A stretch of 64,000 bases of DNA from Clostridia bacterium (GCA_045650505.1 JAZRRE010000003.1:11759-75758), one strand, 5' to 3'; positions 9,604 through 43,457 are shown, numbered from the stretch's first letter. Notes: a model not told the origin generated them from the sequence alone. Numbers and translations: made by a program.

Positions 9604-10008
9604 ATGGCAGAAAAGAAAGTTAAAAAAGCTGCATCATCTAGAAAGCGTAAAATTACTACTAATGTTGATAAAGGTAGAGTTTATATTCAATCTTCTTTCA
9701 ACAACACTATTGTAACTGTTACTGATGCTGCAGGAAACGCACTCGCTGCTTGTTCAGCAGGTGCTCTTGGATATAAAGGTAGCAAGAAAAGCACACCTTT
9801 CGCAGCTGGTCAAGCTGCTGAAAAAGCTGCTAAAATCGCTAAAGAATATGGTCTTAAATCAGTCGAAGTTTATGTTAAAGGACCTGGCAATGGTAGAGAA
9901 TCTGCTGTAAGAAGTCTTGCAGCTGCTGACCTTGAAGTTACTATGATTAGAGATGTATCTCCAATCCCACACAATGGTTGCCGTCCACCAAAACCAAGAA
10001 GAATCTAA
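9604..10008 (+). CDS. rpsK: 30S ribosomal protein uS11
   Basis: [25 protein letters not shown]...[10 protein letters not shown]...[13 protein letters not shown] is a uS11 pattern. Confidence 0.96.
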
Positions 10009-15084: not shown

Positions 15085-16773
15085 TTAAAGCAATGTGATT
15101 GAGAATAAGCAGAAGATTAAAAGCGAAATCACATCGACAATGGTTGTGATGAATGGGTTTGCAACAACTGCTGGGTCAAGTTTGATTTTCTTTGCTAAAA
15201 GCGGCAAAATTGCCCCCACAAGTTTGGCAATACATATAGTTGCAAATAGTGATAATGAAACCACAAATGAGATTTTAAAGGTATAATCATAGCCAAAAAT
15301 CAAGTTGTCAATAAGCATAAGCTTTCCAAAGCAAGCTACTGCTAAAACAAATGCAACAATCACTGCAACGCGAATTTCTTTCCAAATAACTTTCAGAACA
15401 TCTTTCAGTTCAACTTCTCCTGTTGCAAGTGACTGAATTATGGTTACTGATGCTTGGCTTCCAGAGTTTCCACCGGTTCCCATAAGCATTGGAACACAGG
15501 CAAAAAGAAGGGGAGAAAGGCTGTTTAATGTGCTTTCATAAACGTTGATAATAATACCTGTAAATGTGGCCGAAATGAGCAAAATTAAGAGCCAAGGCAA
15601 ACGGTTTTTGAAAATAGAGAACACATTTGTTTGAAGATATGGTTTTGTGGTTGGTGCGATACCGGCCATTTTGCTGATATCTTCTTGGCTTTCTTCTTGA
15701 ATAATGTCGATAGCATCGTCAATAGTAACGATACCGGTGATTCTATTTTCATTGTCAACAACAGGAACTGCAAGAAGGTCGTATTTTTGAAGCATATTAG
15801 AAACTTCTTCTCTGTCTGTGCTTGTATGGGCATAAATGACATTTTCTTGCATAAAATCACCAATTTTATCGTTTGGCTTGTGCAAAATTATGTCTTTTGC
15901 AGAAACGGTTCCAAGAAGGCGTTTTTTGTCATCTGTAACATAACAAGTATAGATTGTTTCTTTGTCAATTGCTTGTTTTCTCATTTTCTTGAGTGCTTCT
16001 GAAACAGTCATTTTTGTTCGAAGTGTAACGAACTCTGTTGTCATAATGCTTCCAGCGCTATCTTTAGGGAAACCTAAAATTTTATTTAATGTTGCTCTTG
16101 TTTCAGGATTTGAAAGCTTTAAAAGTCTAATTACGACATTTGAAGGCATTTCTTCAATAATATCAACAGTATCATCGACAAAAAGCTCATTAATAATGTT
16201 AGAAACTTCGGCATCAGTGAATGTGTTGATAAGCATTTTTTGTCTATCTACGTTCATATCGACAAAAACTTCACTAGCAAGGTCTTTTGGAAGAAGTCTG
16301 AAAATAACTACAACTTTTTCTTTATCGATATCGTTCATAATGTCTGCAATATCAGCTGGTTCCATTTCTGCAAGAAGTGGTTTTAATGATGAAAACTTTT
16401 TGTTTTCAATGTTATCAATAATCTCAAGAAGTTTTTCGTGGCGAGTGTCAGCTTCAGCTTTTAAAAGAATTTCATTAAGCACTTTTTGGTTGACATCATT
16501 TTCAACATCACTGTCTAAAAGCTCTTCTGAAATTTCTTTAAATTCAAAGCCACTGATGTTATCAATTAAATATTGTTGAAGGTCTGTTTTAAATTTAACG
16601 AAAACTCTTGCAGAAACTTCTTCTGGAAGTTTAGGGAGAATTTTAACAAGTTCATCGCGTTCAATTCTTGAAAGGGCACGAGCGAGGTCGGTTGTTGTTA
16701 TTTTTTCAACCATTTCGTTGAGCTCATCAAACTTTTCTTCGTTAAATAATTCCTCAATTCTATTGTTTAACAT
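15085..16773 (-). CDS. mgtE: Magnesium transporter MgtE (562 aa, extended N-terminus)
   Basis: MgtE_N-like repeats, a CBS pair and a C-terminal TM domain with GTGGNSGSQ. Preceded by an M-box leader. Confidence 0.92.
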   Translation of the reverse strand: MLNNRIEELFNEEKFDELNEMVEKITTTDLARALSRIERDELVKILPKLPEEVSARVFVKFKTDLQQYLIDNISGFEFKEISEELLDSDVENDVNQKVLNEILLKAEADTRHEKLLEIIDNIENKKFSSLKPLLAEMEPADIADIMNDIDKEKVVVIFRLLPKDLASEVFVDMNVDRQKMLINTFTDAEVSNIINELFVDDTVDIIEEMPSNVVIRLLKLSNPETRATLNKILGFPKDSAGSIMTTEFVTLRTKMTVSEALKKMRKQAIDKETIYTCYVTDDKKRLLGTVSAKDIILHKPNDKIGDFMQENVIYAHTSTDREEVSNMLQKYDLLAVPVVDNENRITGIVTIDDAIDIIQEESQEDISKMAGIAPTTKPYLQTNVFSIFKNRLPWLLILLISATFTGIIINVYESTLNSLSPLLFACVPMLMGTGGNSGSQASVTIIQSLATGEVELKDVLKVIWKEIRVAVIVAFVLAVACFGKLMLIDNLIFGYDYTFKISFVVSLSLFATICIAKLVGAILPLLAKKIKLDPAVVANPFITTIVDVISLLIFCLFSITLL

Positions 16774-16825: not shown

Positions 16826-16992
16826 GTATATCGACTTTTGAATACCCGTTCAAGCTTTAGCTCCGCAGGGCAGTGGCATTGCGTTAAATTTCCCCTTGAA
16901 AATGTTGTCGAGAAAATTTGTTAACCTGCAAACAAAAGTCTCCTTTTGAGAGCGGCAGCAACCCGTATCCCTGTGGTAGCCTTACCTACCGA
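16826..16992 (-). promoter_or_regulatory. M-box (ykoK-type) magnesium riboswitch
   Basis: The minus strand contains GGTAGGTAAGGCTACCACAGGGATACGGGTTGCTGCC...GCTAAAGCT. This matches the conserved M-box core as I remember it from the B. subtilis mgtE leader. It sits upstream of mgtE. Confidence 0.85.
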
Positions 16993-17008
16993 TTTATCAT
17001 ACAATTTG

Positions 17009-21230: not shown

Positions 21231-21597
21231 GGGGGTGTTTCTGGTTTCGACAGGGAGCAAGAAATGCTATTTATAAGCGTGTGTGTAGCCTCGGCCTACA
21301 TTAAAAACGAGAAAAAAATAAACGCAGATAACTATTCTGTTGCTACTGACGTAGCAGTTGCTGCTTAATTTTAGCGGCTCGGCAATTTAAAATTTCTCAC
21401 TGGTTTTAAGTTGTTGTCATAATAAGTGGGGTGAACACTGTTGATGTTCGTGCATCAGTGTTCGAGATTTAACGGACTGGCTCAAAATGATTTTGTTTAT
21501 TTAAAGTTTTGTGTGAGACAATAAAATAAACTAGCACACGTAGAAGGGGTAGTCTTTCGCTTTTTGGACGCGGGTTCAAGTCCCGCCACCTCCACCA
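21231..21597 (+). ncRNA. ssrA: tmRNA (SsrA)
   Basis: 5' GGGGGTG pairs with 3' CACCTCCACCA, including a G3:U pair. T-arm GGACGCGGGTTCAAGTCCCGCC. The internal tag frame ends ...ADNYSVATDVAVAA-TAA (21324-21368). Confidence 0.93.
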
Positions 21598-21600
21598 AAT

Positions 21601-21630
21601 AAAAGCCTTGGAATTTTCCAAGGCTTTTTC
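21601..21630 (+). terminator. tmRNA terminator
   Basis: AAAAGCCTTGG-aatttt-CCAAGGCTTTTT. Confidence 0.85.
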
Positions 21631-21718
21631 TTATAGTCGGTGGCTGGGACAGTTTGAAATGAGTGACGCTCGAAATTTTCTCGCTATTCTGTCGCAAGAT
21701 AAACTTGCTCCTTACACG

Positions 21719-21735
21719 CCCGCCACCTCCACCAA
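21719..21735 (+). repeat. Direct repeat of the tmRNA 3' end (att-like)
   Basis: CCCGCCACCTCCACCAA is identical to 21582-21598, the last 17 nt of ssrA including one flanking base. Confidence 0.9.
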
Positions 21736-21742
21736 TATTTCA

Positions 21743-21774
21743 AATCGAACCTAATACATTGGGTTCGATTTTTA
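21743..21774 (+). terminator. Second terminator, following the duplicated tmRNA end
   Basis: ATCGAACC-taatacattg-GGTTCGAT followed by T5. Confidence 0.75.
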
Positions 21775-21790
21775 TTTGTGGCGCACTTTC

Positions 21791-21819
21791 TTGAATTGGC
21801 AAATTTTGGGTGTTAAAAT
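21791..21819 (+). promoter_or_regulatory. Promoter of the barnase-barstar cluster
   Basis: TTGAAT (21791-21796), 17-nt spacer, TAAAAT (21814-21819). Confidence 0.5.
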
Positions 21820-21858
21820 TTTTATATAATTGCTAAATTCAAGGAGAAATGCTAAAAT

Positions 21859-22428
21859 ATGAGTATATTTGATGATATAAAAGAATCAGTAGAAAATTTT
21901 TTCAAAGAAAAAACAACTAAATATAACAAATCTTCAAAATGGAAAGAATATAAACTTGGAGCAACTTTAACACATTGTGCAACTTGTTATGATAGAAATA
22001 ATAAAATTTACGAAGCATATTATAATGAACCAAAACTTCCAGAACACGATAATTGCAAATGTTATCTTGAGTGGCTCAAAAGTTTGGGTGTTGGAAAAGC
22101 AACGGAACTTGGAATAAATGGTGCAGATTTTTATCTAAAATATTATGGGCGTTTGCCAGAGTATTATATAACAAAACAAGAAGCAAAAAGTTTAGGTTGG
22201 AAGTCTTATAAGGGAAATTTTGACAAAGTTGCACCTGGAAAAATGATGGGTGGAAATATATATAAAAATAAATTGGGTATATTGCCAAACAAAGAAGGTC
22301 GAGTTTGGTATGAGTGTGATATTGATTATCAAGGTGGATACAGAAACAATGCAAGGCTTGTTTATTCAAATGATGGTTTGATATTTAAAACAGATAGTCA
22401 TTATACAAATTTTATAGCGATTGAATAA
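21859..22428 (+). CDS. Barnase-family ribonuclease toxin with an N-terminal MuF-type CxxC...HxNCxC motif
   Basis: The C-terminal ~110 aa align by eye with B. amyloliquefaciens barnase (LPEYYITKQEAKSLGWK...VAPGKMMGGNIYKN...GRVWYECDIDY...RNNARLVYSNDGLIFKTDSHYTNF). The N-terminus has CATCYDRNNKIY...LPEHDNCKCY. Confidence 0.88.
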   Translation: MSIFDDIKESVENFFKEKTTKYNKSSKWKEYKLGATLTHCATCYDRNNKIYEAYYNEPKLPEHDNCKCYLEWLKSLGVGKATELGINGADFYLKYYGRLPEYYITKQEAKSLGWKSYKGNFDKVAPGKMMGGNIYKNKLGILPNKEGRVWYECDIDYQGGYRNNARLVYSNDGLIFKTDSHYTNFIAIE

Positions 22429-22438
22429 GGAGAAAACT

Positions 22439-22717
22439 ATGGTAAAGTATGAATTTAATAGAAATGAATTTGAATGGGCAGAAGAGTTTTATGACATTAT
22501 TCAAAAGAAAATGAATTTGCCAGATTGGTTTGGAAAAAATCCAGATGCATTGTGGGATATGCTTACAGGTCACATTGAAACGCCTTGTGAAATTACACTA
22601 GTGGGTTTTAGTAGAGAAGAAAATGAATATAATAAAAAGGTTTTGGGTTATATATTTGACATTTTACGAGATGCACAAGAAGAGTTCCCAGACGAGTTTA
22701 AAATTATAATAAAATAG
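22439..22717 (+). CDS. Barstar-family immunity protein, copy 1
   Basis: F.DIIQKKMNLPDWFGKNPDALWDMLTGHIE matches the barstar YYGENLDALWDCLTG helix. AAGGAG RBS. ATG 22439 lies within the track ORF. Confidence 0.88.
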   Translation: MVKYEFNRNEFEWAEEFYDIIQKKMNLPDWFGKNPDALWDMLTGHIETPCEITLVGFSREENEYNKKVLGYIFDILRDAQEEFPDEFKIIIK

Positions 22718-22725
22718 GTGTTGCT

Positions 22726-23007
22726 ATGGTAAAGTATGAATTTAATAGAAATGAATTTGAATGGGCAGAAGAGTTTTATGATGTTATTCAAAAGAAAATG
22801 AATTTGCCAGATTGGTTTGGAAAAAATGCTGATGCTTTGTGGGATATGCTTACAGGTCACATAGAAACACCTTGTGAAATTATACTTATTGGTTTTAATA
22901 AAGAAGAAACAAATAAATATAATAAATTAATAATTGATAGAATACTTTTTTGTTTTGAAGAAGCAGAAAAAGAATATCCAGACGAATTTAAAATAATTAA
23001 AAAGTAG
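22726..23007 (+). CDS. Barstar-family immunity protein, copy 2
   Basis: The N-terminal ~55 aa are nearly identical to copy 1 (NADALWDMLTGH). The C-terminus has diverged. Confidence 0.88.
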   Translation: MVKYEFNRNEFEWAEEFYDVIQKKMNLPDWFGKNADALWDMLTGHIETPCEIILIGFNKEETNKYNKLIIDRILFCFEEAEKEYPDEFKIIKK

Positions 23008-23013
23008 GTTTTT

Positions 23014-23292
23014 ATGGTTAAATATGAATTTAATAGAAATGAATTTGAATGGGCAGAAGAGTTTTATGACATTATTCAAAAGAAAATGAATTTGCCAGAT
23101 TGGTTTGGAAAAAATCCACCTGCATTATGGGATATGCTTACAGGTTACATAGAAACACCTTGTGAAATTACACTTATTGGATTTAACAAGGAAGAAAATG
23201 ATTACAATAAAAAAGTTTTAGGGTATATACTTGAGAGATTTGAAGATGCAGAAAAAGAATTTCCTGATGAATTTAAAATAATTAAAAAGTAA
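23014..23292 (+). CDS. Barstar-family immunity protein, copy 3
   Basis: Same N-terminal block, but NPPALWDMLTGY. The first Asp of the barnase-binding helix is replaced by Pro. Confidence 0.85.
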   Translation: MVKYEFNRNEFEWAEEFYDIIQKKMNLPDWFGKNPPALWDMLTGYIETPCEITLIGFNKEENDYNKKVLGYILERFEDAEKEFPDEFKIIKK

Positions 23293-23378
23293 AAGTTCAA
23301 TTTAATTATGATGTTCTTCACCAATAATTAAGGCAAGTTTTGGCTTGTCTTTTTTTGTTTCGAAAAATTTATATTTAA

Positions 23379-23412
23379 TGTCCGTTTTTTTGGACAATAT
23401 GTTTGGTATGAT
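23379..23412 (+). promoter_or_regulatory. Operator-promoter module A: TGTCC-N8-GGACA dyad plus extended -10
   Basis: Dyad at 23379-23396, then 10 nt, then TGGTATGAT (-10 hexamer 23407-23412). Preceded by GAAAAATTT, as in modules C and D. Confidence 0.6.
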
Positions 23413-23445
23413 GTGGATAATAACAAAAAGCCAAAGGAGAAAACT

Positions 23446-24729
23446 ATGAAAGAGTTTGATAGAGTTATTGGATATGAATCAATTAAAAAAGAATTAAAAA
23501 GAATTTGTGATATTTTGGTGAATCCTGAAAAATATGACAAATTTGGGGTTAAAGCCTCACAGGGCTTGCTTTTGTTTGGTGACCCAGGTGTGGGCAAAAG
23601 TTTAATGGCGGAATGCTTCATTAATGCCACAAAAAGAAAGTGTTTTGTTTGCAGAAAAACCAAGCCAAACGGTGAATTTGTGAATGAAATCACAAAAACA
23701 TTTGAAGATGCCAAAGCAAATGCGCCATCAATTGTATTTCTTGATGATATGGATAAGTTTGCAAATGAAGATGAAAGAAGACCTGACACCGAAGAATATG
23801 TGACCATTCAATCTTGCATTGATGGAATTAAAGGCAGTGATGTGTTTGTTGTTGCGACCGCAAATGATATTTACAAACTTCCTTATTCACTTCGAAGGAC
23901 AGGCAGGTTCTCAAAAAGAATTGAAGTAAGAGCACCTGAAGGCAAAGATGCAGAAAACATTATTAAGTTTTATTTAAGCCAAAAAGACAAAGTCGGTGAT
24001 ATCAACTTAACCGAAATTTCAAGACTTCTCACAACAAAAACCTGTGCCGATTTAGAAATTATTGTAAATGAAGTAGGGGTTTATGCTGCAGCAGAAGGCA
24101 AAGAAAAAATTGAGCATAATGATATGGTTAGGGCATGTTTAAGAGTGTTATATGATGCACCTGAAGCAGAAGAATCTGTGTTTTCAAACAGCAGTGAGAA
24201 AAACAAGATGACTGCTTATCACGAAGCAGGGCATATTGTTGTTGCAGAAATTTTAGAGCCCGAAAGTGTAACCCTTGCATCTATTGCAAATTACACAGGT
24301 GATGCTGCAGGAATCACCTCAACTTATCAAACAAATGATTATTATCATTCAATCAAATATATGAAAAACAGAGTGAAAGTTGTGCTTGGTGGAAAGGCTG
24401 CAACTGAAATTGTGTTTGGTGAAATTGATGTTGGTGCAACAAATGATTTAAACAGAGCATTTAAAATTGCATCAAGATTTGATGATGACTATTGTGGAAT
24501 AGGTTTCGATTCAAATATTCGATACAACCATGATACATCAGATATGCAGAGAGAAAGACATAATCAAAAACTTGCAGTTGAACTTGAAAAATCTTATTTA
24601 GAAGTGAAAGAAATTATTGTTAAAAATCGTGAGTTTTTAGAAAAATTGGCTAACAAACTTTTAGAAAAAACAACAATTATGATGAGTGATATTCAAGAAA
24701 TTAAAAAGACTTGCAACATTTCAAGGTAG
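23446..24729 (+). CDS. Soluble FtsH-like AAA+ ATPase fused to an M41 zinc metalloprotease domain (no TM segments)
   Basis: Walker A GDPGVGKS, Walker B IVFLDDMD, SRH/Arg-finger ATANDIYKLPYSLRRTGRFS, and M41 motifs AYHEAGH...GGKAATEIVFG...GATNDL. ATG 23446 follows AAGGAG. The track start at 23413 directly abuts the predicted -10. Confidence 0.85.
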   Translation: MKEFDRVIGYESIKKELKRICDILVNPEKYDKFGVKASQGLLLFGDPGVGKSLMAECFINATKRKCFVCRKTKPNGEFVNEITKTFEDAKANAPSIVFLDDMDKFANEDERRPDTEEYVTIQSCIDGIKGSDVFVVATANDIYKLPYSLRRTGRFSKRIEVRAPEGKDAENIIKFYLSQKDKVGDINLTEISRLLTTKTCADLEIIVNEVGVYAAAEGKEKIEHNDMVRACLRVLYDAPEAEESVFSNSSEKNKMTAYHEAGHIVVAEILEPESVTLASIANYTGDAAGITSTYQTNDYYHSIKYMKNRVKVVLGGKAATEIVFGEIDVGATNDLNRAFKIASRFDDDYCGIGFDSNIRYNHDTSDMQRERHNQKLAVELEKSYLEVKEIIVKNREFLEKLANKLLEKTTIMMSDIQEIKKTCNISR

Positions 24730-24736
24730 GTGATTT

Positions 24737-25429
24737 ATGAGATATGTGGTTTCAGACATTCATGGCAATTATGATTTGCTTGTAAAATTATTAAATAAAA
24801 TTAAATTTTCAAAAGAAGACACATTGTTTGTTTTGGGTGATGTGATTGACAAGGGCAAAGATGTTCAAAAATTGTTAAATTTGCTTTTTGGTGAACTTCG
24901 TGATAACTCTTTTGTTCTTGCTGGAAATCATGAGTATGAGTTTGTGAAAATGGTTACCAACTTAATAACTCAAAATGCAAGTGACAAGAAAATTTTAGAG
25001 GAAAGCAAAAAGTTTTTGGGTGTTAAAAACTTAACACTTCAAGATGTTGATGACATTATGAATTTGCCTTATTTTCACGAAGAAGATGATTTTATTTTGG
25101 TTCATGCTGGTGTTCCATTCGATATGCGCGGAAATCAAATTCCTTTAGAACAAGCGGCTCTTGAAGATTTGGTTTATGATAGAAGATTTAAAAGAGAATG
25201 TTTTTTGCCTGAAAATTGTAAGTGTGTAATTTTTGGGCACACGCCAACATTTTATATTGAAGGGCATAGTGGCAAGATTATAAAATATCAAAAACCTAAA
25301 ACAGTGGGAAACAAGCCAAAAGATTATTACAAAATCCATATTGACACCGGCAATTATTTAACCGGAATTTTGGGCTGTTTGTGTCTTGATGATATGACAG
25401 AATATTATGTTAGTGAAATTGTTGAATAA
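24737..25429 (+). CDS. PPP-family metallophosphoesterase (PrpE/ApaH/lambda-phosphatase-like)
   Basis: Motifs VSDIHGN, GDVIDKG, GNHE, VHAG and GHTP occur in canonical order. Starts 8 nt after the protease gene. Confidence 0.85.
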   Translation: MRYVVSDIHGNYDLLVKLLNKIKFSKEDTLFVLGDVIDKGKDVQKLLNLLFGELRDNSFVLAGNHEYEFVKMVTNLITQNASDKKILEESKKFLGVKNLTLQDVDDIMNLPYFHEEDDFILVHAGVPFDMRGNQIPLEQAALEDLVYDRRFKRECFLPENCKCVIFGHTPTFYIEGHSGKIIKYQKPKTVGNKPKDYYKIHIDTGNYLTGILGCLCLDDMTEYYVSEIVE

Positions 25430-25433
25430 ATAG

Positions 25434-25467
25434 AAATGTGTCCAAAATAATGGACACATTTTGTTTT
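25434..25467 (+). terminator. Hairpin terminator that also contains a TGTCC-N8-GGACA dyad (module B)
   Basis: AAATGTGTCC-aaaataat-GGACACATTT followed by TTTTGTTTT. TGATATTAT (-10 hexamer 25475-25480) follows 18 nt after the dyad. Confidence 0.7.
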
Positions 25468-25517
25468 AAAATGATATTATGGAAATGATAAAAATTAGAA
25501 AATTAAAAAGGTTGAAA

Positions 25518-26510
25518 ATGGCTTACACAAACAATAAAAAATTATCCATAATTTATATTTTAGAAATTTTGAAAGAATATTCAGATGAAAAACACCCGCT
25601 CACACAAAATGAAATCTTGAAAAAACTTTATGATGTTTATGGAATGGAATGTGAAAGAAAATCTGTTGGTGCAAACATTGAAAATTTGATTGAAGCGGGC
25701 TATGACATCGTTAAATGTGAGGGTGGTGGCTGCTATCTTGGTGCACGCGATTTTGAGCAGAGTGAAATTTCGTTTTTGGTTGATGCAGTTTTTTCAAGCA
25801 AATCAATAGACAGCAAAAAATCGCGAGATTTGGCAAAGAAAATTTCGGCATTTTCAAGCAAATATGATAGAAAGAAATATAATTATATTTACAAAAGTGA
25901 TGAAATTTCAAGAACAAACAACAAGCAGTTGTTTTACACCATTGACATTTTGCACGAAGCAATAGAGCAGAAAAAACAGGTTGAATTTTCTTACGACAGA
26001 CCTTATGTTTCTAAAGCAAATCAAGAGAAACAACAAAATAAAAGATATATTGTGAATCCTTATTTTTTGGTTAATAATCAGGGCAGATATTATCTTGTGT
26101 GCAATTATCATTATTTTGATGATATTGCAAACTATAAACTTGACCAAATTAAAGATATCAAAATTTTAGAAAAAGATGCAAAACCAATTGAAAAGGTTAA
26201 AGGTTTTGAAAATGGACTTGATATTGCAAAGTATGCAAATGAAAATATTTATATGTTTTCAGCCGAAACTATTGATGCAGTTTTAAAACTTTCAGATGAG
26301 TATGCGGTTGGAATTTTAACCGATTGGTTTGGAACAAATGCAAGGGTTTATCAGCAAAATGGAGAGATTTTTGCTGATGTGAAAGCAAATGAAAAAGCCA
26401 TAGTTTATTGGGCACTTCAATATGGTGAGCACTTTGAACTTTTGTCACCACAACAAACACGCGAAAAAATCAAACAAGCAATAGAAACTTTAAACAAAAA
26501 ATACAATTAA
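25518..26510 (+). CDS. WYL-domain transcriptional regulator (wHTH-WYL-C-terminal extension)
   Basis: N-terminal wHTH-like region (IIYILEILKEYSDEKHPLTQNEILKKL...) and a central RYIVNPYFLVNNQGRYYLVCNY WYL signature. Start chosen downstream of the predicted -10, while the track start at 25479 overlaps it. Confidence 0.8.
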   Translation: MAYTNNKKLSIIYILEILKEYSDEKHPLTQNEILKKLYDVYGMECERKSVGANIENLIEAGYDIVKCEGGGCYLGARDFEQSEISFLVDAVFSSKSIDSKKSRDLAKKISAFSSKYDRKKYNYIYKSDEISRTNNKQLFYTIDILHEAIEQKKQVEFSYDRPYVSKANQEKQQNKRYIVNPYFLVNNQGRYYLVCNYHYFDDIANYKLDQIKDIKILEKDAKPIEKVKGFENGLDIAKYANENIYMFSAETIDAVLKLSDEYAVGILTDWFGTNARVYQQNGEIFADVKANEKAIVYWALQYGEHFELLSPQQTREKIKQAIETLNKKYN

Positions 26511-26527
26511 ACACAGGAGAAAAATAG

Positions 26528-27214
26528 ATGTTTCAACAAAAAAGTATAAAAGATATTGTGGATGAAATTTATCAAGATATTGTTAATGGTAAAATTATTT
26601 TTGCAAATGAAAATCAATTTCAGTTTGAATTGGCGTGGAGAATTAAAAATGAGTATAAAAATTATGATGTAATTTTTGAGGCTGTCTATTTAGACAACAC
26701 AGGAAAGAAATGTTACACTGATTTAGTTGTGTTAGATAAAAACAATAAAAAATACACTCCAATTGAACTTAAATATAAAACAAAGAGTAGATATAAAAAT
26801 GATTTATTATTAAAAAATCAAGATGCACAAGGGCTTGCAGCATATGATTATTTAATGGATTTAATGAGAATAGAATTTTTACAACAAAATCCACAGCAAC
26901 AATTAAAATTTTATGAGTATTATGATAATAATCAAAGTTATTCATTTGATACAGGCTATGCAATAATGTTCACAAACGATAAATCTTATTATAACGGAGA
27001 TTGGATAAATAATCAGGCTAGAGATTTCTCAATAAAAGAGGGTTTAAACAAAACAGGAACTCTTAATTGGAATTTAAAAATCAATAAAGTTAATAATTTT
27101 GGAAAAAACAGACAAAATTCAATTATTTTAAAAAACAACTATTTGTGTGAATGGGCACCAAAAATTGCGATAAATAACAATAATTATTTTCGCTATTTAA
27201 TACTAGAAGTTTAG
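26528..27214 (+). CDS. Hypothetical protein, possible PD-(D/E)xK nuclease fold
   Basis: Ordered E (FQFELAWRI), D (CYTDLVVLD) and ExK (TPIELKYK) motifs. This is weak, motif-level evidence only. Confidence 0.45.
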   Translation: MFQQKSIKDIVDEIYQDIVNGKIIFANENQFQFELAWRIKNEYKNYDVIFEAVYLDNTGKKCYTDLVVLDKNNKKYTPIELKYKTKSRYKNDLLLKNQDAQGLAAYDYLMDLMRIEFLQQNPQQQLKFYEYYDNNQSYSFDTGYAIMFTNDKSYYNGDWINNQARDFSIKEGLNKTGTLNWNLKINKVNNFGKNRQNSIILKNNYLCEWAPKIAINNNNYFRYLILEV

Positions 27215-27224
27215 GAGAACATTT

Positions 27225-28100
27225 ATGGAAGAAAATAAAATTATGTTAAATGATATATTAAACTTTACAGAAGAAGAAATTAAAAATGCAAAAATAACAT
27301 TAAATATGACTGCTGGACATGATGGTAAAAGTTTTTTAGATTACTGGCTTGAAACAAATGATTTAAAAAATGCACAAAAACATTGTTATTGGTCACATGG
27401 AGGAGAAAAGGAAGAAAATAATAGAAATTTTACAAGAGAAGGACAGATAAATGTTGGATTTGTAAGAATGAATGAAAATGATAAGTGGTTATTAGTTACA
27501 ATAGGTAAGATTACAAAAATACCACAAAAACCGGACCATTGTGAATTTGAAGAATATAAAGAAAAATATATTGGGTTATATGGTAGGTTAATTATTAGGT
27601 GTAAAAAAGGTAATACATTTGCTAGATATTGTTTTAATTTAAGCACATTTTTAGATAATTGCGAAGTGCTAGAAATATTACCTAAAAGATATGAAGGGGA
27701 AGAATTTAAAGGATTTGACCAAATATCATTAAAATATGATGAGTTAAAAGATATGTTAGCGGAAAAATCAAGAAAGACTTGGAAAGAAGCATTAAGTCAA
27801 ATTAAAGGTGTATATTGTTTAACTGATAAAAAAACAGGGAAATTATATATTGGTTCTGCAACAGGTGAAAATGGTTTTTCTCAAAGATGGAATGATTATT
27901 TAAAAACAAAAACTGGTGGAAATGTTGAGTTAATAAAATTATATGAAAAAGAAGGTGAGCAATATTTTATTGATAATTTCCAATATACGGTATTAGAATG
28001 GTTTGGTTTAAATTATGATAATAAAAAAATTCTTGAAAGAGAAAATTATTGGAAAAATGCTTTTTCAACTCGTGAAGGAAATGGATACAATAAAAACTAA
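27225..28100 (+). CDS. GIY-YIG nuclease domain protein with an uncharacterised ~185-aa N-terminal domain
   Basis: C-terminal KGVYCLTDKKTGKLYIGSA...RWNDY...ERENYWK...N gives the GIY, YIG, Arg and Glu elements in order. Confidence 0.8.
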   Translation: MEENKIMLNDILNFTEEEIKNAKITLNMTAGHDGKSFLDYWLETNDLKNAQKHCYWSHGGEKEENNRNFTREGQINVGFVRMNENDKWLLVTIGKITKIPQKPDHCEFEEYKEKYIGLYGRLIIRCKKGNTFARYCFNLSTFLDNCEVLEILPKRYEGEEFKGFDQISLKYDELKDMLAEKSRKTWKEALSQIKGVYCLTDKKTGKLYIGSATGENGFSQRWNDYLKTKTGGNVELIKLYEKEGEQYFIDNFQYTVLEWFGLNYDNKKILERENYWKNAFSTREGNGYNKN

Positions 28101-28215
28101 AAAAGAAATCTTTTGATTTCTTTTTTTTTGCTGAAAAATTTAAAATCATTATGTCCGTTTTTTGGGGCTTGGTTTTTGATATTATAGGGTTAAGCAAAAG
28201 GAAGAATGATTATGA
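28093..28215 (+). repeat. Module C / repeat R1: terminator hairpin + dyad + extended -10 + RBS
   Basis: The first 38 nt are identical to 29221-29258 (AAAACTAAAAAAGAAATCTTTTGATTTCTTTTTTTTTG). The rest looks ~85% similar by eye. Dyad 28152-28169, -10 hexamer 28180-28185. Confidence 0.85.
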
Positions 28216-29222
28216 GTAAAATTGAATCAAGAAAAATATTGGTTGTTAACGATGGTGGAAAAAAATTAGAAAAAAGCGATTTATTATTTTCAACTATTGT
28301 ATCTATTTGGGAACAAGGCAGAGAAGAAATTGAAGATTTAATAAATATTATAAATAAAAAAGGTCAAGGCTTTAATTTTGACAATGATTTCATTATGAGA
28401 ACATGTCTTTATTTAATGTGTCCATCGTCTGAATTGAAAATTGAAAATTTGGGTTCAGAAAACATAAAAGCAATTAAAGATAATTGGGAAAATATTAAAA
28501 ACAGCATTATTAAAGCAGTTGATTTACTTAATTGTTTTGGTTTTTGTTCAGGAAATTTGGTTTCTAAAAATGTTGCAATCCCGGTTATTTATTACATTCA
28601 TAAGGACGGCAAATTAGATGAAGAGTCTATAAGTGAATTAAGAAAATATTTAATTATAGCACAAGTGAAACAGTTGTTTGGTGCTGCAGGCAATTCGGCT
28701 TTAGCAAAAATAAAAAAAGAATTAAACAACCACAAACTCAAAAAAGAAGGCTTTAAATTATCTTATTTTAATGAATTGAAATTTGTTGCACAAAGAGATT
28801 TTTCTGTTAACGAAGACTTGTTAGAAATAGTTTTAAATTATGATAAGGGTAGCCCTTATGCGTTTATGATATTATCTTTGTTATATCCAGAAATTAAAAT
28901 GAATGAAGTTCAATGGCATCAAGACCATATGCACCCATATGCGAAATTTAACACGAAAAATTTAAAGAGTTTGGGAATAAATGAAGGAAAAATTATTGAA
29001 TGGCAAAAAATGAGAGATAAATTACCAAATTTGCAATTACTTGTAGGAAATGTAAATGAAAGTAAAAATGATATGGATTTGGAAGAATGGCTCAATAAAG
29101 GTAATATTGATAAATATTTGCCTAGAAAAATTTCTTATAAACTTGTTGATTTTGAAAAATTTTATGAAAAAAGAAGAGAACTTTTAAAAGATGAATTAAA
29201 AAAGATATTTGATATTAAATAA
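28212..29222 (+). CDS. GmrSD-family fragment: distal DUF262 part + DUF1524 His-Me finger, N-terminal catalytic part missing
   Basis: Starts at the ...NDGGKKLEKSDLLFS... motif that lies mid-DUF262. The DGQQR-type N-terminal motifs are absent. C-terminal HQDHMHP...NLQLLVGNVNESKN is a DUF1524/HNH-like motif. Confidence 0.7.
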   Translation: MSKIESRKILVVNDGGKKLEKSDLLFSTIVSIWEQGREEIEDLINIINKKGQGFNFDNDFIMRTCLYLMCPSSELKIENLGSENIKAIKDNWENIKNSIIKAVDLLNCFGFCSGNLVSKNVAIPVIYYIHKDGKLDEESISELRKYLIIAQVKQLFGAAGNSALAKIKKELNNHKLKKEGFKLSYFNELKFVAQRDFSVNEDLLEIVLNYDKGSPYAFMILSLLYPEIKMNEVQWHQDHMHPYAKFNTKNLKSLGINEGKIIEWQKMRDKLPNLQLLVGNVNESKNDMDLEEWLNKGNIDKYLPRKISYKLVDFEKFYEKRRELLKDELKKIFDIK

Positions 29223-29347
29223 AACTAAAAAAGAAATCTTTTGATTTCTTTTTTTTTGAAAAAATTTGAAATTATTTTTCAAATCCGTTTTTTGGGATTC
29301 TTCTTTTGATATTATAGAGTTATACAAAAGGAGGAAGGAAATATGAG
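29221..29347 (+). repeat. Module D / repeat R2: terminator hairpin + dyad + extended -10 + RBS
   Basis: Direct repeat of 28093-28215. Dyad AATCC-N8-GGATT at 29282-29299, then 10 nt, then TGATATTAT (-10 hexamer 29310-29315). Confidence 0.85.
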
Positions 29348-29579
29348 TGAAAATGAATTAAGAAAAAAAATTGATGAATTATTGGTGGTTGATGATGTGA
29401 GCATGGCAAGAATGAAAAGTGTGCTCAAAATTGGTTACACAAGGGCTGCAAAAATTATAAACTTTCTTGATGAAGAAGGTTATTTGATTGAAATGGGTTG
29501 TTATCAAAAGAAGTTTAACTTCGATTTTTATGATGAACTCAAAGATGTGATTTTTGAATGGTTTTGTGAAGTTGCCTAA
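29343..29579 (+). CDS. Small stand-alone FtsK-gamma-like winged-helix protein (78 aa)
   Basis: VSMARMKSVLKIGYTRAAKIINFLDEEGYLIE resembles the FtsK gamma domain core (LQR.L.IGY.RAA.I.D.LE..G.I). Confidence 0.65.
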   Translation: MSENELRKKIDELLVVDDVSMARMKSVLKIGYTRAAKIINFLDEEGYLIEMGCYQKKFNFDFYDELKDVIFEWFCEVA

Positions 29580-29593
29580 ATGAATTTAGTGCA

Positions 29594-29625
29594 TAAAAAA
29601 ACAGCCTAATTTTAGGCTGTTTTTG
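29594..29625. terminator. Bidirectional terminator between convergent island genes
   Basis: A7, then CAGCCTA-attt-TAGGCTG, then T5. Confidence 0.8.
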
Positions 29626-29639
29626 GCATTTATTATTTA

Positions 29640-31298
29640 TTAAAATGAGCGATATTTTTCAAAATATTCTTGAAGTGTTTTGCACTCTTTCATTTTTTTG
29701 AGGGTGCTTGCTTGAAGTCGTTGTTTATATTCTTCGGTTTCGGCTTGGTTTTGAATTTTGCCTTCAAGAACAGATTTTAAAATTCTAGACATTGTTCCAG
29801 ATGATTTGAAAAGATTGTGTGAAGAAGCATAAGCATCTGCCATATCAATCATTTCAGGAGTTGGGGTGGCATATGAACCATCAGGCATAATGAATTTGGC
29901 ATTTCCACTTGAATACATACCATAGTCAAAATCGGCTGAATATGAATCAAGTTTTTTGTATAAACCTGTTTTTTTGTTGAAAAGTTTATTTCTGGCATCA
30001 GGTGAAATTTGATTTGAAACGATTACAAAAGGTTTTGCAAACTCATTTCCTAAATTTATTGTTGCACCAGACTTTCTTTTATGGGCAACTAATGCAGTCA
30101 TTAAAAATTTAACTTCTGCATCTGTTAATCTCTTTAAAATTTCACTTTCTTCGGTTGAGTTTGAATCATATGAGTGAATTCGTTCATAATAATATGAAAT
30201 AATGTTTTCAGCAAAACGAATGATGTGAGTATTGTCAACGGTTGAAAGTCCAATATCCATAACAGTTGCAAGGCTTTTCATTTGTGATTGATTTGTCAAC
30301 ATTTCAGGAATATCAAGTTTGCCTTCGGCAATATCTTCAATTTGGTGTTTTATTATTGCAACATATGCTTGAGATTTTCTCTTGCTGTTTTCTTTATAAA
30401 ATTCTGCAAATTCAGGGTTTAAAAGAGAAACTTTTTCACACATTTTCTTAAAACCGGCAACATTTTCAATTTGAAACACACGGCAGAACTCTGTTGCTGA
30501 TAAACCACTATTCATAAAATAGTTCGCAATAAAAAAGTAGTCTTCAGCAGAAGTGATTTTCATTCCATCAGCAAGTTCAAAAAGTTGCATTAGTTCACCG
30601 TTGTCATCTGTCCAAGACATCTTTTTCACAAGGCGAATTTGTTGTTGAATCGCAGAGGTTTTCTTTCCGTGTTCACTTTGAAATTTGCGAAGTTGTTCGT
30701 CACCTTCAATATAAGCCAAAATAGCTTCAGGAACTTTGCTTTTATCTTCGATTTGGCTGTAATGTTCAACAACGTTTTGTCTTCCAAATGGGCTGATTGA
30801 ACTTGTTCGTGTCATAACAAATTTCAATTTGTCAGGAGCGTGAACTGCAATCCATTCAAGGGCTTCCCAAGGCTTATCTTCAGGAATTGAGTAGAGAAGT
30901 CTGTCATCAACTTTGTGTTGAACTTTCATTTTATAAATGTTTTCAGGGTGAACAATAACTTCGCGGCAAAGTTTTGGAAGTGTTAAAATTTGTTCTTTTG
31001 AATATTCTTTAAAATCTTTTGGTGAAAGTGTTTTAAACATTATTGGCCAAAACAAAACATCATAAGCAACTTCTGGGTGTTTTAAACAAAAGTCAATAAT
31101 GGTTTTTTTGTTTAAAATAAGGTTTTGAATGAGATCCATTTCATCATATTCAAGATGTGCGCGTTCGTAATAACCAGCATCTTTATGCGAAAGCAATTTT
31201 TCAACGATGTGATATGCATAGAAATGGCTATGGTTATTTGTTCTTACATAATTAAAATTGTTAAGCAATTCTTCTCTTAAAATCTCTCGTTTTTCCAT
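29640..31298 (-). CDS. Hypothetical protein (552 aa), no recognisable domain
   Basis: Clean long ORF. Its ATG overlaps the stop of the upstream 54-aa ORF (TAATG). No motif recognised. Confidence 0.7.
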   Translation of the reverse strand: MEKREILREELLNNFNYVRTNNHSHFYAYHIVEKLLSHKDAGYYERAHLEYDEMDLIQNLILNKKTIIDFCLKHPEVAYDVLFWPIMFKTLSPKDFKEYSKEQILTLPKLCREVIVHPENIYKMKVQHKVDDRLLYSIPEDKPWEALEWIAVHAPDKLKFVMTRTSSISPFGRQNVVEHYSQIEDKSKVPEAILAYIEGDEQLRKFQSEHGKKTSAIQQQIRLVKKMSWTDDNGELMQLFELADGMKITSAEDYFFIANYFMNSGLSATEFCRVFQIENVAGFKKMCEKVSLLNPEFAEFYKENSKRKSQAYVAIIKHQIEDIAEGKLDIPEMLTNQSQMKSLATVMDIGLSTVDNTHIIRFAENIISYYYERIHSYDSNSTEESEILKRLTDAEVKFLMTALVAHKRKSGATINLGNEFAKPFVIVSNQISPDARNKLFNKKTGLYKKLDSYSADFDYGMYSSGNAKFIMPDGSYATPTPEMIDMADAYASSHNLFKSSGTMSRILKSVLEGKIQNQAETEEYKQRLQASTLKKMKECKTLQEYFEKYRSF

Positions 31299-43185: not shown

Positions 43186-43457
43186 AAAAAAGTCGAGCAC
43201 ACATTTCGTTATACAACACCGAAGTGGAAACCAAGTAGCCAGCTACTTCAAAGCTACCTCAAGGCACATAGAAGATTTCGCTTAATGCTGCTGCGGTCAG
43301 GCTCTGACATGGTTCACGAAGTTCTATTGCTTAAGACCTTGATATCAACACCGCTTGCTTGGTGCGACCTCCCATATCATATACCTAGATGTGCGGTCTA
43401 TCCTGCTATAGTAGATCTCAGGTTACAGGGCACTACTAGCTCCCCATATAGCTCGAC
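43186..43457 (-). ncRNA. ffs: Signal recognition particle RNA, long Bacillus-type (scRNA) with Alu domain
   Basis: The minus strand reads GTCGAGC..GGGGAGCTAGTAGTGCCCTGTAACCTG...TAGCAGG...GTGAACCATGTCAG..GCAGCAGCATTAAGCG...GCTCGAC+T6. This matches my recollection of B. subtilis scRNA blocks. Upstream promoter: TTGATT, 16 nt, TATAAT (43491-43464). Confidence 0.8.

Follow-up and report, generated by a model that had tools for sequence, protein, structure and literature searches.

The stretch of DNA analysed here (hereafter the window; 64,000 nucleotides (nt), GCA_045650505.1, JAZRRE010000003.1:11759-75758) is chromosomal DNA of an uncultured, low-GC Clostridia bacterium, whose closest record is a locus (L031) from a goat-caecum metagenome-assembled genome (MAG), with 98.6% amino-acid identity in the AAA/M41 protein. 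In this window, the genes for RNase R, SmpB and tmRNA (the last at 21231-21597) are followed by an island that reaches to about 34.3 kb, downstream of which lie a NUDIX gene and spo0A; no integrase was seen. The island carries a barnase gene and three barstar genes, genes for an AAA+/peptidase-M41 protein, a metallophosphoesterase, a WYL regulator, a protein of 228 amino acids (aa) without assigned family (orf228), a UzuA-like GIY-YIG protein, the C-terminal half of a HEC-05/GmrSD-type protein and a 78-aa FtsK-gamma-like protein and, on the opposite strand, genes for a 552-aa protein and a ResIII helicase. The defence-like matches found with PADLOC are the UzuA-like, HEC-05-like and IetA-like genes. 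The object of this work is a promoter module, formed by a palindromic box and an extended -10 element, which recurs at the head of transcription units of this island, and its relation to the WYL regulator that the island encodes.

An earlier note on this DNA had described a shared cis module at the head of three or four units, and a module heading four units was borne out; the coordinates given there all hold. The boxes (named A, R, C and D in order of occurrence) and the features around them are the following, all on the plus strand:

23330-23358 (+): terminator closing the barstar block and adjoining module A; 9-bp stem and T run, -9.2 kcal/mol, z -3.9
23362-23370 (+): GAAAAATTT, A/T-rich, UP-like stretch of module A (from sequence)
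23379-23396 (+): box A, forward type, TGTCC-GTTTTTTT-GGACA, centre at about -31.5; identical in L031 and in the sister island L323
23404-23412 (+): extended -10 of module A, TGGTATGAT (from sequence)
23446-25429 (+): unit 1, soluble AAA+/peptidase M41 (23446-24729) and metallophosphoesterase (24737-25429); Pfam, with a weak IetA-like match in PADLOC
25433-25462 (+): hairpin ending unit 1 and containing box R; 12-bp stem, -15.5 kcal/mol, T run
25439-25456 (+): box R, inverted type, TGTCC-AAAATAAT-GGACA, centre at about -39.5; its arm TGGACA (25451-25456) serves the WYL promoter as -35
25472-25480 (+): extended -10 of the WYL promoter, TGATATTAT (hexamer TATTAT at 25475-25480, 18 nt 3' of box R)
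25518-26510 (+): WYL regulator, 330 aa, with winged helix-turn-helix (wHTH), helical bundle, WYL and WCX domains; Pfam WYL and WCX, structure model
26528-28100 (+): exchangeable cargo co-transcribed with WYL, namely orf228 (26528-27214) and the UzuA-like GIY-YIG protein (27225-28100); PADLOC UzuA, E 5e-47
28093-28130 (+): terminator, copy 1 of a 38-nt perfect repeat (stem-loop 28099-28130); -10.8 kcal/mol, z -4.9
28152-28169 (+): box C, forward type, TGTCC-GTTTTTTG-GGGCT, right arm degenerate; perfect orthologue in L323
28177-28185 (+): extended -10 of module C, TGATATTAT (from sequence); ATG at 28206
28206-29222 (+): unit 3, C-terminal half of the HEC-05/GmrSD-type protein; PADLOC HEC-05 profile positions 257-594 of 600, E 6e-92
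29221-29258 (+): terminator, copy 2 of the 38-nt repeat (stem-loop 29227-29258); from repeat comparison
29282-29299 (+): box D, forward type, ATCC/GGAT variant, AATCC-GTTTTTTG-GGATT; kept in L323 as ATCC-GTTTTTTA-GGAT
29307-29315 (+): extended -10 of module D, TGATATTAT (from sequence); ATG at 29343
29343-29579 (+): unit 4, 78-aa FtsK-gamma-like winged-helix protein (cargo); Pfam FtsK_gamma, under the curated cut-off
29597-29629 (+): terminator closing unit 4, convergent with the minus-strand genes; -16.1 kcal/mol

The promoter modules

The 13-mer core of the box, TCCGTTTTTTKGG, is present in three exact copies (at 23381, 28154 and 29284), against a chance expectation of 0.31 even with one mismatch allowed, and no further copies were found in the 64-kb window. 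In modules A, C and D, the -10 hexamer follows the dyad centre at a distance of 19.5 nt, which places this centre at about -31.5, the -10 element is of the extended type TGnTATnAT, and a -35 hexamer at 16-18 nt spacing is absent; the earlier description of the dyad as standing in the place of the -35, in promoters devoid of a good hexamer there, holds for these three copies. The distance of exactly 10 nt that was also claimed is correct from the 18-nt dyad to the -10 hexamer, but not to the TG, which is 7 nt away. Every module has an intrinsic terminator on its 5' side (the stem-loops with T runs at the gene ends were confirmed as such, with z from -4 to -5) and a ribosome-binding site and ATG on its 3' side, the start codon of module A being at 23446. 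The fourth dyad, box R, is indeed located 18 nt before the WYL -10 and inside a terminator, as the earlier note had it; its loop is A-rich on the coding strand, unlike those of A, C and D.

Modules C and D are sequence duplicates (the 38-nt perfect repeat, which is the terminator, plus 56 nt at 80% identity), so that the window alone offers about two independent instances of the module. The imperfect right arm of copy C appears to be a derived state, since the orthologous copy in L323 is a perfect GTCC-GTTTTTTT-GGAC. The A/T-rich element GAAAAATTT, which reads GAAAAAATTT in module D, is separated from the dyad by 8, 10 and 14 nt (and not by 10-17 nt, as reported before), and its proposed role as a conserved part of the module was rejected because GAAAAWTT is found upstream of only 6 of 80 related boxes elsewhere; we take it to be a subfamily or UP-like feature.

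Based on these elements, the modules are predicted to be sigma-A promoters in which a strong extended -10 (TRTGnTATnAT) is combined with a 16-18 bp palindrome, wGTCC-(A/T-rich N8)-GGACw, instead of a -35. Two other assignments were tried and abandoned. An alternative -35 for copy A (TTGGAC/TGGACA) would leave spacers of only 10-11 nt to TATGAT and of 19-20 nt to another -10 candidate, GATAAT, and an alternative sigma factor does not agree with a -10 that is the standard extended -10 of sigma-A, nor with an upstream element that is a symmetric dyad. The HEC-05/GmrSD-type gene begins right after module C, and could be either a truncated gene with a new promoter or a stand-alone nuclease half.

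Distribution of the box and genes downstream of it

Genomes and viral contigs were scanned with the pattern TCCGTTTTTTKGG-N10-TGnTAT, which imposes the T-rich loop and the spacing, and matches were obtained in 4 viral contigs and in at least 119 genome loci. The genome loci listed belong overwhelmingly to Lachnospiraceae, Oscillospiraceae and other Clostridia (with a few evident chance matches in other phyla), and the cultured isolates carrying the box include Parablautia muri, Gallintestinimicrobium propionicum and Pseudoflavonifractor sp. MSJ-30. Among the matches listed (120 sites), the positions that had not been imposed complete the palindrome, with G in 68% before TCC, A in 74% and C in 68% after GG, and W outermost; in the related sites, again among the matches listed, the last T of the -10 is present in 85% and a T at -17 in 65%. 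The resulting consensus is wGTCC-GTTTTTTK-GGACw, 8 nt, TGnTATnnT. Given that the flanks of these sites are mutually unrelated in sequence and that the non-imposed positions nevertheless complete both the dyad and the -10, box and spacing are, on sequence grounds, a widespread promoter type of Clostridia and their phages, and not an island-specific motif.

A second scan of the viral contigs, this time with a free loop (GTCC-N8-GGAC-N8-TGnTATnnT), returned many gut-phage sites with loops of the type nnTTTATn, mostly in XRE-ImmA-integrase modules. About 450 chance matches are expected for this pattern in the viral collection, so that only intergenic, recurrent sites count. In several gut-phage loci (L130, L136, L144, L187, L192 and others), the relaxed-loop box is found at the 3' end of a small cro-like HTH gene, with the stop codon inside the loop, and points antisense through this gene toward a cI-like/ImmA/integrase operon, a position like that of lambda P_RE. 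In other elements (L002, L004, L116, L151 and L178) the box lies between an XRE gene and an ImmA-like gene.

The first genes found 3' of forward-type boxes elsewhere include recA in three genomes (L070, L075 and L097) which, with about 64 distinct downstream genes, is far beyond chance; this evidence comes from other genomes, the recA of the window's own genome lying outside the window. Additionally, the box heads other genes of the repair type, namely a lexA-like S24 gene (L086), a Y-family (IMS) polymerase gene (L005) and addB (L072), as well as genes of mobile elements and defence, namely prophage immA/M78, XRE-ImmA operons and, twice, cas12a. Further box-headed genes encode SNF2 and Schlafen-type helicases/nucleases and HIRAN proteins. 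In L070 (a Lachnospiraceae MAG, at ~1040-1170), a second promoter, TTGACA/TATTAT, lies 3' of the box promoter of recA and carries two LexA boxes of the form GAAC-N4-GTTC, GAACGGATGTTC and GAACATTTGTTC. The recA gene of mycobacteria is likewise served by two promoters, a LexA promoter and a PafBC promoter, in the layout seen in L070. Literature searches for the string TCCGTTTTTT and for a Clostridial WYL/recA regulon returned nothing relevant to the former and nothing for the latter.

Association of the box with WYL genes

When the open reading frames around 85 credible genome sites were clustered, the top co-located family was that of the HTH-WYL-WCX proteins (12 loci, among them the window and one phage contig), and a search with a hidden Markov model found WYL genes in 10 of the 119 genome loci listed and in none of the 119 phage loci of the relaxed-loop scan. 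The reverse sample consisted of 80 metagenomic loci picked by the WYL protein alone (28-57% identity), with 74 non-redundant WYL genes, in which a dyad was accepted with at least 7 of 8 arm bases and an A/T-rich loop. Such a dyad occurs 12 times in the 14.6 kb formed by the 200 nt upstream of the 74 genes, at -47 to -94 from the start codon, and 11 times in the remaining 496 kb of the same loci, an upstream enrichment of 37-fold; in all, these loci contain 23 dyads, whereas local shuffles gave 7.2 +/- 2.9. More distant WYL homologues have diverged dyads (with GTAC arms, for example, or TGTCGAC-N5-GTCGACA), as expected if protein and box co-evolve. Among close homologues (59-99% identity), a box precedes the WYL-containing unit in all 10 distinct islands, and the cargo behind WYL differs from island to island (UzuA, GmrSD, a Macro-domain protein, a LlaJI restriction enzyme, or proteins of no assigned family); GmrSD, LlaJI and BREX genes are carried by relatives.

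Two architectures of the box can be distinguished, both of them seen in loci that were not selected for any -10 element. In the forward type, the loop is T-rich on the coding strand and the GGAC arm is followed, after 8 nt, by (T/C/A)GnTAnnnT, with the centre at -31.5; in the inverted type, with an A-rich loop and the centre at -39.5, the -35 is formed by the arm (T)GGAC(A), which precedes the -10 by 17-18 nt. The inverted type was found only upstream of WYL genes, in the window, in L033, L066, L331, L333 and L341, and in five or six metagenome loci (L245, L265, L302, L305 and L313 among them). In L333, the WYL gene and a divergent gene share a single dyad (9945-9960), which is an inverted-type box (-35) to the former and a forward-type box to the latter. 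The same locus also has one case that departs from the association of loop orientation with spacing.

The candidacy of the WYL protein as the factor that binds the dyad, already put forward in the earlier note, has gained in weight from the co-location, the 37-fold enrichment, the 10 of 10 islands of close homologues and the autoregulatory architecture specific to WYL genes. These sequence patterns lead us to predict that the 330-aa WYL regulator of the island most likely recognises the palindrome as its binding site, as would related WYL proteins encoded by the same genomes. L066 (553-6376) contains two WYL paralogues. The first is 85% identical to that of the window and has a GTCC/GGAC inverted box, while the second (46% identical) has an ATCC/GGAT forward box, ATCC/GGAT being also the form of the cargo boxes there and of copy D in the window; this pairing of paralogues and boxes hints at two specificities.

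Structure and class of the WYL protein

The structure model of the WYL protein (m7edc8d5a207d, predicted local distance difference test score, pLDDT, of 77.5) comprises helices at residues 7-59 with a wing, a helical bundle (81-150), a beta domain (153-220) and the WCX domain (251-329). A sequence-profile search of the PDB matched DriD (E about 2e-14) and PafBC, with no match to BrxR or CapW at E<1. In the structural comparison with Foldseek, the best E-values were 4e-14 for DriD, 6e-12 for PafBC, 3e-8 for BrxR and 6e-8 for CapW (the BrxR/CapW matches ranging from 3e-8 to 6e-7). An exact-sequence look-up of the protein of the window found no record. Judging from the model and from the profile, the island's WYL protein is closer in resemblance to the activators DriD and PafBC than to BrxR or CapW.

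Cargo and modularity of the island

The order box, AAA+ gene, WYL gene is also found in 8 other islands of close homologues. In distant relatives, the AAA+ protein upstream of WYL has a peptidase M41 domain (L323, L331, L335 and L338) or an AAA_lid_6 domain (L339 and L340); a metallophosphoesterase is often located between the two, and L066, L033 and L341 show the metallophosphoesterase-WYL part only. The AAA+ and WYL proteins could form a pair of protease and regulator that recalls PafBC and the proteasome.

The island was compared with the sister island L323, in which the WYL protein is 99% identical. In the window, the barnase/barstar block (21603-23315) is inserted directly behind the tmRNA gene, and the otherwise collinear L323 lacks it. 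The block is made up of a gene for a barnase-like ribonuclease (21859-22428) and of three barstar genes in tandem (22421-23292), two of which are an 86% repeat. Furthermore, orf228 and the UzuA-like cargo (26523-28120 in the window) are swapped in L323 (9857-12249) for two unrelated genes, encoding proteins of 427 and 353 aa. One breakpoint of this swap, at 26522, coincides with the stop codon of WYL; the other, at 28121, is where homology resumes, immediately 5' of module C. The terminator-box-promoter units thus bound the exchangeable cargo, and the modules may favour homologous exchange. An integron-like attC or cassette junction was discarded, given that the island has no recombinase and that the repeats are terminator and promoter.

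The earlier note had also named the 78-aa winged-helix (FtsK-gamma) protein as a candidate for the shared regulator, which we reject: close homologues are found only in L066 and L323, and FtsK-gamma proteins are recurrent cargo, encoded in L033 and L043 by the gene that comes first after the box. Another recurrent cargo behind the box (L027, L038, L051-L054, L001, L058 and L009) is a pair formed by a ~200-aa protein starting MRIMSR..YHRPECRY..CKCC and a HIRAN-domain protein, which may be a defence module. Elsewhere in the window there are ordinary chromosomal features, namely an M-box riboswitch (16837-17000, minus strand) upstream of mgtE (15085-16773, minus strand) and the gene of the large signal recognition particle RNA (43193-43456, minus strand).

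Interpretation and rival explanations

From sequence conservation, geometry, co-occurrence with WYL genes and fold relationship, we infer how the modules are bound, by which ligand the regulator is governed and with which sign it acts. The explanation to which we assign a probability of roughly 0.55 is that the box belongs to a DriD/PafBC-like WYL activator, probably triggered by single-stranded DNA (ssDNA), and was co-opted by defence islands and prophages. In this mechanism, ssDNA arising from DNA damage or phage attack would bind the WYL domain and free the winged helices, allowing the dimer to settle on the two GTCC/GGAC half-sites. Sigma region 4 would dock on the opposite face, over the T-rich centre, and RNA polymerase would be held by the regulator at a promoter devoid of a -35. 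Three units would be switched on in this way, namely the one for AAA+/M41 and phosphoesterase, that of the HEC-05 fragment and that of FtsK-gamma. At the WYL promoter itself, the box is inverted and moved 8 bp upstream; a regulator bound to it, and hence to the -35 that its arm TGGACA provides, should be in competition with sigma, which would result in negative feedback. The hairpin that contains this box also ends the upstream unit.

Several observations weigh against this explanation. The Foldseek template-modelling scores (TM-scores) are low (~0.3), as the multi-domain model does not superpose as a whole. The scans imposed loop and spacing, and the rigidity of the geometry rests consequently on the smaller, unbiased sets of WYL loci. 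About 88% of the boxes have no WYL gene within the ~8 kb examined, so that most would need to be served in trans, and the strict dyad is kept by only 12 of the 74 distant WYL homologues (28-57% identity). Finally, promoters with an extended -10 so near to consensus and with A/T-rich sequence upstream could be active unaided, which would fit a repressor better than an activator, and the WYL regulators of defence islands described so far, BrxR and CapW, are repressors.

The same WYL protein could therefore act as a BrxR/CapW-type repressor, silencing toxic cargo and leaving the box when its WYL domain binds ssDNA. This we consider rather unlikely, in spite of the defence-island setting, the nuclease and protease cargo, and the known WYL repressors of BREX and CBASS, which sense ssDNA (PMC9122601, PMC11662680). 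It would also agree with promoters that may need no help (with TG and a T at -17 in addition to the features just mentioned) and with the overlap of both box positions (-31.5 and -39.5) with the site of sigma region 4. Nevertheless, BrxR and CapW rank clearly below DriD and PafBC as matches to the WYL protein, and BrxR operators have arms of 10-11 bp and a 5-bp spacer and lie downstream of the promoter (PMC9122601), whereas the arms here have 4-5 bp, the spacer 8, and the centre is at -31.5 or -39.5. Moreover, a plain steric block needs no spacing fixed to the base pair, the fixed position observed coincides with that of an activation complex, and the presence of recA and repair genes in the regulon agrees with DriD. 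The repressor operator that the earlier note had proposed by analogy with BrxR and CapW has become doubtful in view of the DriD/PafBC ranking, the rigid position and the recA/repair regulon.

That the box is bound by some other Clostridial factor (an XRE/ImmR-type repressor or a global regulator), the WYL genes being cargo, seems improbable. Most boxes have indeed no WYL gene nearby, and many of them, together with the phage relaxed-loop variants, occur in XRE-ImmA-integrase modules devoid of WYL, but the XRE proteins near the box are heterogeneous and their positions vary. The 37-fold enrichment at a fixed distance, the inverted form exclusive to WYL genes and the 10 of 10 islands are the signature of an autoregulated factor, and the diverged dyads of distant WYL homologues look as if protein and box co-evolve.

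Lastly, there is very little to recommend the view of the dyads as nucleic-acid hairpins (terminator, attenuator or recombination site) or as mere copies of a duplicated intergenic region, which would suit the fourth dyad inside a strong terminator hairpin, the duplication of C and D, the symmetric arm changes (GTCC/GGAC vs ATCC/GGAT) and the L323 cargo swap that ends just before module C, but which faces the weak stems of A, C and D (4-6 bp, -4.8 to -7.3 kcal/mol, equalled by 5-10 of 200 shuffles) and their location upstream of the -10, hence outside the transcript that each heads (two grounds on which a hairpin or attenuator role of these three copies was rejected), the lack of an Rfam match at the modules (in a gathering search of the window and an E-value search of 23250-29700) and the more than 100 independent sites that keep box and -10 spacing in unrelated flanks.

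A possible SOS-independent alarm regulon

Taking the WYL activator as a starting point, we tentatively suggest, with rather less than even confidence, that gut Clostridia possess an undescribed SOS-independent alarm regulon under DriD-like WYL activators, in which a GTCC-(T-rich N8)-GGAC box at -31.5 would drive recA and repair genes, prophage immA/switch genes, cas12a and island cargo. If so, prophage induction would be coupled to this alarm and immunity would be wired to the same ssDNA signal, and the conserved pairing of AAA+ (often M41) and WYL proteins would amount to a unit of regulator and protease, as in the case of PafBC and the proteasome. In practical terms, the 16-bp box would predict damage- or phage-responsive genes in uncultured gut Clostridia (repair genes, prophage switches, CRISPR-Cas12a and defence cassettes). 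The DriD/PafBC mode of activation at promoters without a -35 would be extended to Firmicutes, and defence islands and prophages would plug their cargo into a host alarm circuit by means of a portable terminator-box-promoter module.

Comparison with known WYL systems

The system most comparable to the one proposed here is DriD of Caulobacter crescentus, a homodimeric protein (about 327-330 aa) composed of a wHTH, a helical bundle, a WYL and a WCX domain. Its box, ATACGAC-N7-GTCGTAT (CGNC-N7-GNCG) with an A/T-rich centre, is present in 68 of 69 promoters of driD homologues (PMC10853764). DriD shares with the island protein the domain order and the length, and is its best match in both fold and sequence; the two boxes are palindromes with short GC-rich half-sites and an A/T-rich centre. 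Cryo-electron microscopy work from 2026 (PMC13004042) describes DriD-activated promoters as devoid of a -35, its place being covered by the box, whose distance to the -10 is constant, and we computed from its constructs that the centre of the DriD box is 1.5 bp downstream of the centre of the -35 hexamer, that is, at -31.0 (compared with -31.5 here). In both cases there is a box at the regulator's own gene, recA is found in the regulon (as the DriD literature reports for DriD) and one box can serve divergent genes (here in L333). The two systems differ in the half-sites (GTCC/GGAC here), in the spacer (8 nt here and not 7), in the extended -10 of the promoters described here and in the host, which is here a Gram-positive anaerobe. 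Sequence identity is ~14-18%, and the box described here is reiterated before defence cargo, prophage immA and cas12a.

Mycobacterial PafBC (which recognises the RecA-NDp motif) is a WYL activator of the same class, responsible for an SOS-independent damage response, and its target promoters also lack a -35. The PafBC site is placed just upstream of the -10, PafBC also activates recA, which has both LexA and WYL-type promoters, and a protease system shows genetic linkage to the regulator, a linkage to which the AAA+/M41 gene adjoining WYL can be compared. PafBC is, however, a heterodimer-like fusion with a non-palindromic site and does not bind DNA without RNA polymerase (PMC10853764), unlike the symmetric dyad and single gene found here.

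BrxR and CapW resemble the present case in being wHTH-WYL-WCX regulators located inside defence islands, with several boxes per island (R-BOX1 and R-BOX2 for BrxR; PMC9122601) and likely ssDNA sensing, but they are shorter (~280-290 aa), rank lower in fold and are repressors. The WYL activators of Acinetobacter and other Moraxellaceae, which belong to a different phylum and are likened here by their network only, control both the damage response and anti-phage genes (PMC12392091, PMC13010146), so that there, as proposed here, one WYL regulator ties DNA damage to phage defence.

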